Shown here piece after piece: positions 23,201 to 26,808 of a DNA stretch of 64,000 nucleotides (its first letter is position 1; every line of letters begins with the position of its first letter). The translations under genes and the position numbers were made by a program. The notes under the pieces were generated by a model. That model saw only the letters and a list, made by a program, of their open reading frames with translations, searched no databases and was not told the origin of the DNA. Source of the stretch: Schmidtea nova (lineage: Eukaryota); NCBI GenBank assembly GCA_044892505.1, contig CM097882.1, positions 182,900,001 to 182,964,000 of the forward strand. Reading direction: 5' to 3'.

Positions 23201-23799
23201 AAAGTTTTAATAATACTGTAAATAATTTATTTTTGATCTAAAATTTTATTTTTAAATCAATGTTTTTCTAAGTTTATTCAATTTGTCAAATTTTCTCTAA
23301 AATAATTTTCTTTTATATTTTCCTAGGTTTTTAAGGTAAAAATTAAAAGTTTCCTCCAGAAAATATGTTAATTTTTCATAGTTTGTTATTTTATTATATA
23401 ATTGATGTTTTTATGTTATATGTGTTTTTCACATGTGTTGTGCCAGCCAAATAGAGGGAAAAGTGAAATAAAAGTGGAATAATTAAAAACAAAAAGAGAA
23501 AAATAAGGTAAAAAGGGGAATATTAATTTGTTAAAAGAAAAGAGTAATATAGTTAAAATATAGATAAATTAAGAACAAACTATAAATAAAAATAAATGAA
23601 TTTCTAGATATTAACGGGCCCAGGAGACATCTAAAAACAAATAAAATACAAATAATAATAATTAAAACCAAATAAAAGTACTTGTTATTGAATAATTGTT
23701 TTTGAAACCCAGACCTCCGAGGAAGAATACAATCTAAAAAATAAAAATTAATTAGAATCAAAAATAATAATCAAACCCACCATGAAATTGGCCAAACTT

Positions 23800-23836
23800 G
23801 ATTGGTCAGTCTAGACCCGACTGATCAGTATAAATA
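23800..23836 (+). promoter_or_regulatory. CCAAT box plus TATA box of the LTR promoter
   Basis: GATTGGTCA and GATCAGTATAAATAC; both are identical in the diverged solo LTR (14552-14560 and 14524-14538, minus strand) at a similar distance from the LTR start. Confidence 0.7.
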
Positions 23837-24847
23837 CTGATCAGATTTTGAACATAATCAGATTGTTTAGATTGTTAAGATTGAAATTGTTAACCCCAGA
23901 CTAAGTTGAGTTACGTAGAATAACCAGACTAAGATCAACAGCTTGACAGAATTTTTCAACACTACAGATTAATCTTTGACCGAATTTTGTTACAAGTAGA
24001 CTGACAGAATTAAAACTAGACGTAGACTGAAATCAATATTCAAAATTCGATAAGCGAAAAACAGCAATCTATAACCGGATCAATTAGGTACTTTGATTTC
24101 ATTTTCGTCTTATTATTTTTGTCATTCGATTCATGTTGATCATTTATGTGTATTTATATATTAGAAATAAATTTTATTAACATAATATCGAATTTTTCAT
24201 CATATTAATTTTGCGCCGATTGGGAGCTTTAGGTTCCCAAGGTGTCAGTCCGTGGCGTGGTGCTCGAGGGCTCTACACACGGTAAAGTAATAAATAACAA
24301 AATACGATTTTTAGTAGTTGAGGAGATTTGCACATGGGACACCCAACGAATCCGGGGGAATTATTTTCCGATCATTTTAGCTATAGAGGAGGCGATTTTC
24401 AGATAAAGTCTAACGATGTAGGATAGGAAAGAATTTTTTGACTATGAGGAGGCACAATTTTTCACCCTCACCACAGCACAGTTACTGAATAAACCTCTAA
24501 TAAATCTTAGAAAAATTAGGTCGACCGCATTTGATATGAAAGGGGCGTTTTTCGAGTAAGCTAGGGAATACATGATGTGAGAGAGTTTCCGTTTTGAGGT
24601 ATCAATGTTTCAATATCCAAGCAGACAAATCCCCATTTTTCCGACTATATTATTGAACAAGAACAGATAAATCTAAGCAGACACGAGAGTAATGTATACC
24701 GTAACAAGCAACAGTTTTTCTTGATTTCAGTTAAGGTCTAAGGGGAAGGCAAATAATAAAGGCATCACGATGAGAGATAACATCTACTATAATTAATCAT
24801 TGATTTAAATTGTTAACTATTATAAAATTTAGCATCGTTCTAGTATC

Positions 24848-25324
24848 ATGACTAAACACCGATTCACCATCAAAAAGCGACGAGAACGAGCCCGAATTAG
24901 CCCATTAAAGCCGGCTCCTTTTGAGATTTTGCAACAAATCCATCAAAAAATGTGGGCATGGCGCCGAGAGCTTGAAACCGCATGTCCATTTACAGTATGG
25001 GACCATCCACGGCATCACGTATGGTACCGGGGATGCGCTAGTTGGCCAATCATTCCAGACGAGGAATTCGAATCATGGCACGCCGCCTGGTTCGTCCTGA
25101 TGTTGGATAAAAGAGGATTCCCGAACTGTGTGATTTATTGGGGGTTCATTCCAGCCTCTACATTCAAGGAATTGGGGTTCAAGTTCCATACAGCAATACG
25201 ACCCCTTCGAGAAGCTGAGAGGATCCGTTTTCAGCAGGCCTCGTCCAACTCCACTGGGATCAGCTCTCATCTACAAATCAGATCGATATTTTCGTACCGA
25301 GGAAAAATGACCGAAGATGAGTAG
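24848..25324 (+). CDS. LTR-encoded protein A (158 aa), unknown function
   Basis: Intact in both LTRs; homologous to 12886-13275; basic N-terminus KKRRERAR. Confidence 0.75.
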   Translation: MTKHRFTIKKRRERARISPLKPAPFEILQQIHQKMWAWRRELETACPFTVWDHPRHHVWYRGCASWPIIPDEEFESWHAAWFVLMLDKRGFPNCVIYWGFIPASTFKELGFKFHTAIRPLREAERIRFQQASSNSTGISSHLQIRSIFSYRGKMTEDE

Positions 25325-25660
25325 TTGAATCAATGGCCACCTGTTCTAAATTAAATAAATGTTTTAGAGAAATCTGAAGTGTTTCATTTTGTTAATAGCG
25401 CTATAATGTAGATGAGAAATTTATTAACCTCTAGTGTTGTAGATATTACAGTCAGTAGGACATTCTTTCACTAATGTAAAACAGTTGAGTAAAACTTTTG
25501 AATCTCCAATCATTAAATAGGAAAATAATTTTTGTGTAAAGATTTAATACTTAAACACAGTAGTATGCATTTTTGCTCCTAAATCGTAAATAGTCACTTA
25601 ATTAGAATGACCTTGTTGATAGGTTCTCCAGCGAATTTATCGTTATAATATTCAGACACC

Positions 25661-26243
25661 ATGCCGATTTCAGAAAACTCGAAGAGAATCATGGGACAAA
25701 TCCAAGATAGGAAGTTGAGGGACCAGCAGAGGCAGATCAAGCGACTCACGGTAGCCAATGATGAACTGAGAGCGAAGTGGTTCTCACCCGAGCAAATGAA
25801 GGGTCAATCGCAAAAACTCGAGCGAATGCAGGAAGCACTGGCCGCAACTAAATTAGAACTTGACGCCGTCCAGAGAACTACGAAATTGCCTAAATGCAGT
25901 AACAAGAAGTTATATCGACTCCGAATTACGAGCACTAATCCGGCCGATCACGGCTCAGCGCTGGACACAAAGTACTTATCAAGATGTCGCTTGCGGGACG
26001 GAAGATGGTATCATCATGGCCCCCACTCTTGTAACGGCCGATTTGCCTACTTTTCACAGTGATCCATCGAGAACAATAGCGTCAGCACTTGTCCTAAACC
26101 CACCGCTTCGAAAACACCGAATGGGATCGCGACAGCGTCATCGTCGCCGAGAATTTGCGAAGCGCCTGGACGAGCAAATCCACCACTTGAACTCCTTAAC
26201 CGAAGCGGAGTTGATTCAGGAGATTAGTCTGGAGTTTGCGTAG
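25661..26243 (+). pseudogene. LTR-encoded protein B, frameshifted near 25870
   Basis: The two overlapping ORFs (25661-26062, 25860-26243) join into a full homologue of intact 12134-12718 if a GA dinucleotide is restored in GTCCAGAGAACT. Confidence 0.72.
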
Positions 26244-26284
26244 GAAAACATCCATGTCAGATAACAACCTGTTTTTATTATTTT

Positions 26285-26290
26285 AATAAA
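26285..26290 (+). terminator. Candidate LTR polyadenylation signal
   Basis: AATAAA ~40 nt after the ORF B stop; also present after ORF B in the solo LTR (12117-12122, minus). Confidence 0.55.
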
Positions 26291-26534
26291 AGTGTTTTTG
26301 TGTAAAGTTTGTCTCTCATCGTGTGATCTCACTAAATAAAATAAATGACTCGATTAAATCATAGAAATAGAAAATCTCATCAGTATTTTTCTCAGACCGA
26401 CCGTTTCTACGTAGAGACTGATTAATTACCTTGTAGATCAGTTAAGGAAAGTGCAATTGGGGAAAGCGTGTGATAGATCATGAGGATAGGTAGTATAAAA
26501 TTCATTGGGAAACGAACATCCATAGAATGTAAAT

Positions 26535-26725
26535 GCGTAAGACCTTCTATCGGCAGCAAGGACCCGAGGGAAGATAAATGGGGAGTAGTTTTGGCAACAA
26601 AGCTCACCTGCCCATCATTTTTCCACCACCGTATGCATTACCAACTTGACTAGTAGGGAATAGGCAAGGGCATACGCGTGTAGTAGTCATGTTATGTATG
26701 GTTATGGGCGTGGAATCCCTAGTAT
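26535..26725 (+). ncRNA. Conserved structured cis-RNA element near the LTR 3' end
   Basis: Sequence block shared with 6075-6260 (minus); GCAA-tetraloop stem with compensatory changes; second hairpin with loop complementary to a downstream TCCCTA. Confidence 0.55.
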
Positions 26726-26808
26726 ACGTACTCATCAATAGTCGTTCAATTAATGATTAACTATTTATTTGAATTACTTAAAACCCACTTATAATCCCAA
26801 CATAAATT

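Follow-up and report, generated by a model that had tools for sequence, protein, structure and literature searches.

The window analysed here is a 64,000-nucleotide stretch of the Schmidtea nova genome (contig CM097882.1, positions 182,900,001 to 182,964,000 of the forward strand), and all coordinates below count from its first letter. Positions 23436–52123 of the window are occupied by a 28.7-kb Burro-like Ty3/gypsy element with long terminal repeats (LTRs) of 3.37 kb, and each LTR carries two open reading frames (ORFs), ORF A and ORF B, with the following features.

23436–26802, plus strand: 5' LTR, 3367 bp, TGTTG...CAACA, target-site duplication (TSD) CATG.
23800–23864, plus strand: predicted promoter with a reverse CCAAT at 23800, TATAAATA at 23829–23836 and an initiator-like (Inr-like) sequence at about 23858–23864; the layout is conserved in four families and the transcription start site (TSS) is putative.
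23860–24089, plus strand: predicted non-coding leader exon, ending at the donor-like site AG/GTACTT (GT at 24088–24089).
24210–24282, plus strand: two-hairpin island inside the predicted first intron (z = -3.3; 0.79 identity), a candidate packaging or response element.
24841–25359, plus strand: acceptor TAG 24841–24843, ORF A 24848–25324 (158 aa, open), AATAAA 25354.
25653–26290, plus strand: acceptor CAG 25653–25655, ORF B 25661–26243 (frameshifted near 25870), AATAAA 26285.
26533–26690, plus strand: structured RNA block near the LTR 3' end, with a GNRA-type hairpin and covarying stems, also present in ORF-less LTRs.
48758–52123, plus strand: 3' LTR, with a second ORF A copy at 50169–50645 and a second frameshifted ORF B copy from 50982.

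The order CCAAT (23800) and TATA (23829), acceptor, ORF A, acceptor, ORF B and AATAAA (26285) had been described in an earlier note on this DNA and is present in the LTR; the donor-like site, the AATAAA after ORF A and the two structured non-coding islands had been missed. ORF B is 194 aa long in relatives. In both window LTRs it is frameshifted near 25870, the frame from the ATG is 133 aa, and the homology is divided over two frames; of the 40 best DNA matches, none but the two window LTRs shows this length. Of the protein motifs listed in the note, ELR..L..VT.SYI sits in the second frame in the window.

The same arrangement had been reported for a solo LTR at 12030–14908, which belongs to a second family. 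This is indeed a solo LTR, but its end at 12030 was wrong. It extends over 6025–14908 on the minus strand, with its last ~320 bp at 6025–~6340, beyond a 5.7-kb inverted-repeat/satellite insertion, and its TSD (CTGG, minus strand) matches once this piece is joined.

12034–14908, minus strand: 5' part of the family-2 solo LTR; promoter 14560–14523, donor-like site 14398, degenerate ORF A ~13350–12790, ORF B 12718–12134 (194 aa).
6345–12033, no strand assigned: inverted-repeat element splitting the solo LTR, with a 575-bp satellite; ends approximate, partly N.
6025–6340, minus strand: 3' end of the family-2 solo LTR, with the structured block and a terminal CAGCA, then the TSD.

The insertion is foldback-like, with the satellite in both orientations. 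The same order of signals and ORFs runs along the minus strand of the solo LTR from 14560 to 12117. Its ORF A is degenerate, with no start codon at the family position and a frame lost near the 3' end, and the 129-aa frame begins at an internal Met. As the note had judged by eye, the DNA of the two LTR types is barely alignable: BLASTN aligned nothing but the promoter, over 183 nt (68%), and a single block of 130 nt (79%). The ORF A proteins are nevertheless related, with 37% identity between window and solo copies over 101 aa (E 8e-24).

Homologues occur in the LTRs of four diverged families of this genome, with ~20–40% identity between families. Three of these have A and B, and family 3 has B only. 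Family 4 was discovered adjoining a family-2 copy and has B after A in the same layout; its ORF A, at only ~20% identity, is a true homologue by hhalign (P 93%, E 2e-7, 103 columns). The two-gene cassette that had been proposed as general thus holds for three families, but not for family 3 or for short gag-only elements, which have neither ORF. Sequence, profile and structure searches found no homologue, family or fold for ORF A or ORF B outside this genome. Within it, a search with the window ORF A gave 4,473 candidates, of which 150 were scored (90–100% identity), and one with the solo ORF A gave 4,302, of which 150 were scored (55–100%). The codon-degenerate CPFT.WD pattern had 506 genome matches against 0 for its control, and a 15-mer from the LTR 3' block had 2,284 against 1.

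Both ORFs are under purifying selection, as had been surmised from their motifs. Codon models, fitted to alignments of natural stop-free copies only, gave a ratio of nonsynonymous to synonymous substitution (dN/dS, omega) of 0.09–0.24 in every family: for ORF A 0.10, 0.20 and 0.24 in families 1, 2 and 4 (8, 19 and 12 copies), and for ORF B 0.18, 0.13, 0.12 and 0.09 in families 1 to 4 (12, 9, 8 and 7 copies). Omega = 1 was rejected per family, with twice the log-likelihood difference at 381–558. Pairwise dN/dS (NG86) between subfamilies was mostly 0.1–0.15 where dS was measurable, and reached 0.38 in a few close or decayed pairs. The expectation that the ORFs are more conserved than the spacers was also borne out. 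Compared with nine diverged family-1 copies, ORF A and ORF B have identities of 0.68 and 0.64 with 1% gaps, against 0.26–0.41 with 21–37% gaps for leader, intron and spacer; the AT-rich U3 (unique 3') part has 0.70. Identity at codon positions 1, 2 and 3 is 0.79, 0.86 and 0.44 for ORF A, and 0.76, 0.82 and 0.44 for ORF B. Three non-coding islands exceed the ORFs: the promoter (0.89), the hairpins (0.79) and the 3' block (0.90). The constraint on ORF A in one element pair (0.12) is close to that on gag (0.09) and TRAF (0.14), and weaker than that on reverse transcriptase (RT; 0.03). In two element pairs, synonymous divergence is 0.29–0.45 for the LTR genes, several times the 0.03–0.18 of the internal genes, which suggests exchange of LTRs between lineages or faster LTR evolution.

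The signals around the ORFs recur across families. A reverse CCAAT and TATA lie ~1 kb 5' of ORF A in families 1, 2 and 4, and 5' of ORF B in family 3. In families 1–4, the TATA is followed after ~100–250 nt by a donor-like GT, and then by U-rich sequence and hairpins (read by eye). A YAG lies 0–5 nt 5' of the ATG in 20 of 25 ORF A copies and 26 of 27 ORF B copies (shuffle mean ~4, maximum 11 and 13), and AATAAA is found within 70 nt of the stop in 21/25 and 17/27 (shuffle mean ~2, maximum 8 and 9). The acceptor pattern is present in each family where the DNA is unalignable, and the same acceptor–ATG layout is found at internal ORFs of the element (RING, 44917, TRAF, 46862 and 47980). The single conserved CCAAT/TATA stands ~1 kb 5' of ORF A, which is not the placement expected of U3 genes such as sag and nef; ORFs A and B are thus predicted to lie downstream of the promoter and TSS, in R (repeat) or U5 (unique 5'), whether splicing is in cis or to a spliced leader (SL).

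Two structured RNAs accompany the genes. Within family 1, the ~155-nt 3' block is more conserved than any other part of the LTR; it is also found in the solo LTR at 6106–6260 (minus strand). Both sides have changed in 13 of its 26 pairs, which beats shuffled and slid controls; its covariation score was reached by 0/500 shuffles, the structure being derived from the same alignment. A search of Rfam gave no match to it, and it could be a packaging, IRES (internal ribosome entry site) or ribozyme-like element. The hairpin island lies after the donor in all four families, as 2–3 tandem near-perfect hairpins in family 3 (L139:1196-1277), and a GCACAT(A/G)G motif stands 3' of it in families 1, 2 and 4. 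A joint alignment of families 1 and 2 recovered only 6 of its pairs.

The structure model of ORF A has low confidence (predicted local distance difference test, pLDDT, 49.5), and a structure search with it gave no usable fold match. Its conserved Trp, Pro and Gly residues suggest a small globular domain, predicted to be alpha/beta; its N-terminus is basic in families 1 and 4. ORF A is dispensable in the RT-less family (family 3, B only), and is most likely a host-directed helper supplied in trans. The ORF B model (mean pLDDT 77) has helices at 5–40 and 43–111 with an invariant WF between them, a disordered linker, an Arg-rich helix (157–179) and a last hydrophobic helix (182–193). The ~105-residue predicted helix has only weak coiled-coil matches in Pfam. 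A basic run, G-x-[RK]-x-RR, is kept in all four families and predicted to be helical. At the helix–linker border lies an LC8-like motif, VACGTE, SIGTD, KGTNTD and MGVQTE plus STQTD in families 1 to 4, whose anchor V/T-Q-T-E/D is canonical in family 4, TNT in family 3 and C/I-G-T in families 1–2; LC8 clients are expected to have a TQT-like anchor within a disordered region, followed by D, E or P at +2. It resembles the LC8 anchor as described in available passages of PMC6607443, PMC12057147 and PMC12803091, the first of which also states that many anchor-containing peptides do not bind LC8. The genome has 61 matches to dynein light chains, and on C2 near-identical copies that lack introns form a tandem expansion.

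Whether both ORFs remain open depends on the sample. They are open in 19/20 copies of a young subfamily and 20/30 top family-1 matches, and in 4/20 motif-sampled, 1/30 family-2, 2/30 family-4 and 0/40 position-sampled loci. The last were 40 sites taken from the first 100 listed 15-mer sites, leaving out places already sampled and most sister LTRs; 12 had A+B remnants, 10 had B only, and 18 had neither at the LTR position or fragments only. Ten of 50 family-1 LTRs are solo with matching 4-bp flanks, although some lie inside microsatellites, where such a match is trivial. Nine of these ten have both ORFs open, in a sample picked by ORF A similarity and so biased. The claim that every solo LTR leaves an expression cassette in the genome therefore applies to young copies only. 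Intact solo cassettes exist but are transient, since few sampled loci stay open: fresh solo LTRs would be stand-alone gene cassettes, and most old copies are broken. Because most copies decay, selection serves the element's own lineage, not the host.

The B-only LTRs that we examined at full length belong to RT-less elements. Young derivatives without RT, RNase H (RH) and integrase (IN), with near-identical LTRs, retain gag, RING, TRAF and ORF B under selection, and two also retain the fusion protein and protease (PR); these are non-autonomous elements coding structural proteins. Elements of 12 kb with gag only have short LTRs (1.4–1.7 kb) with neither ORF and without the shared promoter motif, and keep the structured 3' block. 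In one copy, a decayed ORF B homologue lies just 3' of the primer-binding site, outside the LTR (L114:5274-5597), which suggests that the ORF B gene can move between LTR and internal positions.

Taken together, we judge it likely that the LTRs of these Burro-like elements hold two selected accessory genes downstream of a predicted promoter, probably expressed from separate spliced mRNAs, with ORF B as an RNA regulator. We consider it quite likely that one promoter and one leader exon serve alternative last exons, including those of RING, TRAF and other internal ORFs. The short leader exon would be spliced to ORF A or to ORF B, each mRNA would end at the poly(A) signal behind its ORF, and the unspliced RNA would be the genome. 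ORF B, built from a long helix or coiled coil, an LC8-type clamp and an Arg-rich helix, may then act as a dimeric nuclear RNA-binding regulator that helps unspliced element RNA escape processing and leave the nucleus. Selection would act during transposition; once inserted, a copy, even a solo LTR, would express the genes no longer than it escapes mutation. We suggest tentatively that ORF B works like Rev/Rex, with the hairpins of the intron or the structured 3' block as its target; we say "works like", not "is a member", because a nuclear export signal (NES) is not convincingly conserved. Rather doubtful is a broader proposal, in which a Ty3/gypsy lineage would have independently evolved control in the style of complex retroviruses, with the LTR as a self-contained early unit, its spliced mRNAs coding an LC8-clamped Rev/Rex-like protein that would release the 25-kb unspliced genome through structured RNAs of that LTR, and with young solo LTRs supplying the proteins in trans to defective and to RT-less relatives.

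Several observations weigh against this interpretation. The TSS, splice joins, transcripts and proteins are all predictions, the first two from sequence signals. The shuffle counts for YAG and AATAAA are not independent tests because the copies are related, and the omega values are biased somewhat low because only stop-free copies were aligned. AATAAA is missing after ORF B in 10/27 copies, including all six family-3 rows, some of which carry ATTAAA. For gag, the YAG closest to the ATG is 10 nt off, and the family-3 homologue of the ORF at 47980 has no YAG within 50 nt. Gag-only elements with short, near-identical LTRs have neither ORF. In ORF B of families 1–2, the anchor of the LC8-like motif contains Gly; a leucine-rich NES is loosely recognisable by eye in family 1 and not conserved in families 2–4. 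Finally, ORF B is broken in both LTRs of the window element, so it is either not needed in cis or complemented.

Expression could also be as proposed with ORF B serving counter-defence or transport, as an LC8-binding decoy against co-transcriptional silencing, a dynein adaptor or a structural partner of the particle, and ORF A as a second anti-silencing factor. This is a possibility that we hold no more than tentatively, with about the same odds for counter-silencing or transport as for the Rev/Rex-like role. A long helix followed by a disordered linker with an LC8-like motif would suit such a role, as would the retention of ORF B in RT-less elements that still code gag and the fusion protein; in available passages, Drosophila PICTS silencing is described as LC8-dependent (PMC7861614) and SMEDWI-2 as repressing Burro1 (PMC8532177). 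However, counter-defence leaves the conserved Arg-rich helix and adjoining RNA structures unexplained, and the mean omega of 0.09–0.24, a site-averaged measure, shows no fast arms-race evolution.

It is unlikely that the ORFs, though real, are expressed by SL trans-splicing of a polycistronic transcript, as in flatworm operons. The acceptors directly 5' of each ATG and the close tandem array with AATAAA between the genes fit this model, and SL trans-splicing is described in flatworms (PMC8629364, PMC12582326, in part). However, the donor-like site is kept soon after the TATA in four families, and an outron would not need one. Flatworm spliced leaders, as far as is known, end in AUG, but the YAG–ATG distances of 0, 1, 3, 4 and 5 nt give no fixed frame to a leader AUG.

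Less probable again, and in our view very unlikely, is domestication of the solo LTRs, with the host keeping the cassette for its own benefit. The open TSD-flanked family-1 solo LTRs are consistent with it, as is a host benefit reported second-hand for a Burro1 IAP in the available part of PMC13465017; however, these solo LTRs are young and came from a similarity-based choice, and the position, family-2 and family-4 samples hardly ever have both ORFs open. That the frames arose by chance, or are passengers whose conservation has a non-coding cause, is next to impossible: although no relative was found outside the genome and the non-coding islands of the same LTR are even more conserved, this reading is refuted by the third-position-biased divergence, by omega values that stay far below 1 in all families, and by protein homology of 20–40% where DNA no longer aligns.

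The remainder of the element fits a Burro-like assignment, and the two LTRs (23436–26802 and 48758–52123) are 99.4% identical.

26809–26826, plus strand: primer-binding-site-like sequence after the 5' LTR, putatively matching tRNA-Pro.
27158–48552, plus strand: internal region, with a RING ORF, a gag–fusion glycoprotein–PR–RT–RH–IN–ankyrin polyprotein, and TRAF/MATH and other accessory ORFs, of which most small ones share the YAG–ATG layout.

The PR–RT–RH–IN order, the TG..CA ends of the LTRs and a 4-bp TSD are those of Burro-like Ty3/gypsy elements, as is the giant size, for which a polyprotein of ~4,900–5,100 aa is expected. In the window the polyprotein is broken into several frames; in a young relative it is 4,982 aa long. 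A mononegavirus-like fusion glycoprotein lies in frame between gag and pol (PF24664, E 2e-67, aa 1935–2276; PR at 2461), and Pfam also identified ankyrin and MATH/TRAF cargo. A BIR domain (B-IAP), the mark of Burro1, was not found by Pfam on 13 ORFs, the ORF at 27158 having RING only, and the BCL2-like and dUTPase-like motifs also expected of Burro-like elements were not reported by Pfam at E 0.1. Because no BIR domain was found, we class the element as a Burro-like relative, not as Burro1.

The 19 differences between the LTRs cluster (window 23919–24830 and 26784–26790), with 0/19 within the ~1,060 coding bases of both ORFs. Several are alleles common in other copies, which suggests recombination or conversion rather than ageing. 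Two transposon copies, presumably hAT-like, flank the element at 16871–19185 and 52795–55109; they are 98% identical and in opposite orientation.

The planarian giant Ty3/gypsy elements Burro and GYPSM1 (PMC6431247) share with this element the ~29-kb size, gag, a fusion glycoprotein in frame before pol, PR–RT–RH–IN, ankyrin, MATH/TRAF, RING and a ~5,000-aa polyprotein in young relatives. Here, in contrast, Pfam gives no BIR and TRAF is a separate downstream ORF; the passages available from that paper mention no genes inside the LTR. The literature that we searched has no report of protein genes inside Burro LTRs, although published maps or supplements may already show these ORFs, nor of a Ty3/gypsy element with protein genes placed 3' of an LTR promoter. 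The earlier note had likened the ORFs to sag, nef and bel, and coding within the LTR is indeed shared, but this misses the key difference, that the ORFs are downstream of the promoter and not in U3. Sag and rem exon 2 of mouse mammary tumour virus (MMTV) and nef of human immunodeficiency virus 1 (HIV-1) are likewise coding sequence in the LTR, duplicated at both ends and expressed from spliced mRNAs, but are described as lying in U3, upstream of their own LTR promoter (PMC12789967, in part). Here both ORFs are wholly downstream of the TATA, each with an acceptor and AATAAA, so one LTR would suffice.

Rev-like proteins are described as requiring an Arg-rich domain, an oligomerisation domain and an NES, and ORF B resembles Rev, Rex, Rem and Rec in being a small protein with a predicted fully spliced mRNA, oligomerisation helix and Arg-rich helix and with structured RNAs nearby (PMC10746203, in part). 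It differs in having no sequence or fold link to them, a much longer helix, an LC8-like motif and no convincing NES. The adenovirus major late unit also serves an array of genes from a single promoter and leader, through alternative acceptors and poly(A) sites, but in a DNA virus, whereas the scheme here is deduced from sequence signals only. Functional cargo inside LTRs is known from Cassandra TRIMs (terminal-repeat retrotransposons in miniature), as 5S-like non-coding sequence. In the accounts available to us, retrozymes also have functional cargo in the LTR, but it is a non-coding hammerhead ribozyme, not a protein.

The element type is known; what is unusual is the presence of selected, lineage-specific protein genes inside an LTR, downstream of its predicted promoter. 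Annotation pipelines treat LTRs as non-coding, and known LTR-borne genes lie in U3. With two selected genes beyond its promoter, each young solo LTR would be a portable gene, and 2–3 kb of coding sequence would lie in the part copied first during reverse transcription; genomic RNA would have to pass several poly(A) signals without ending there. This genome contains at least 2,284 related LTRs, and a Burro element has been reported to affect planarian stem cells. The two new protein families and two structured RNAs are directly testable in a standard regeneration model.

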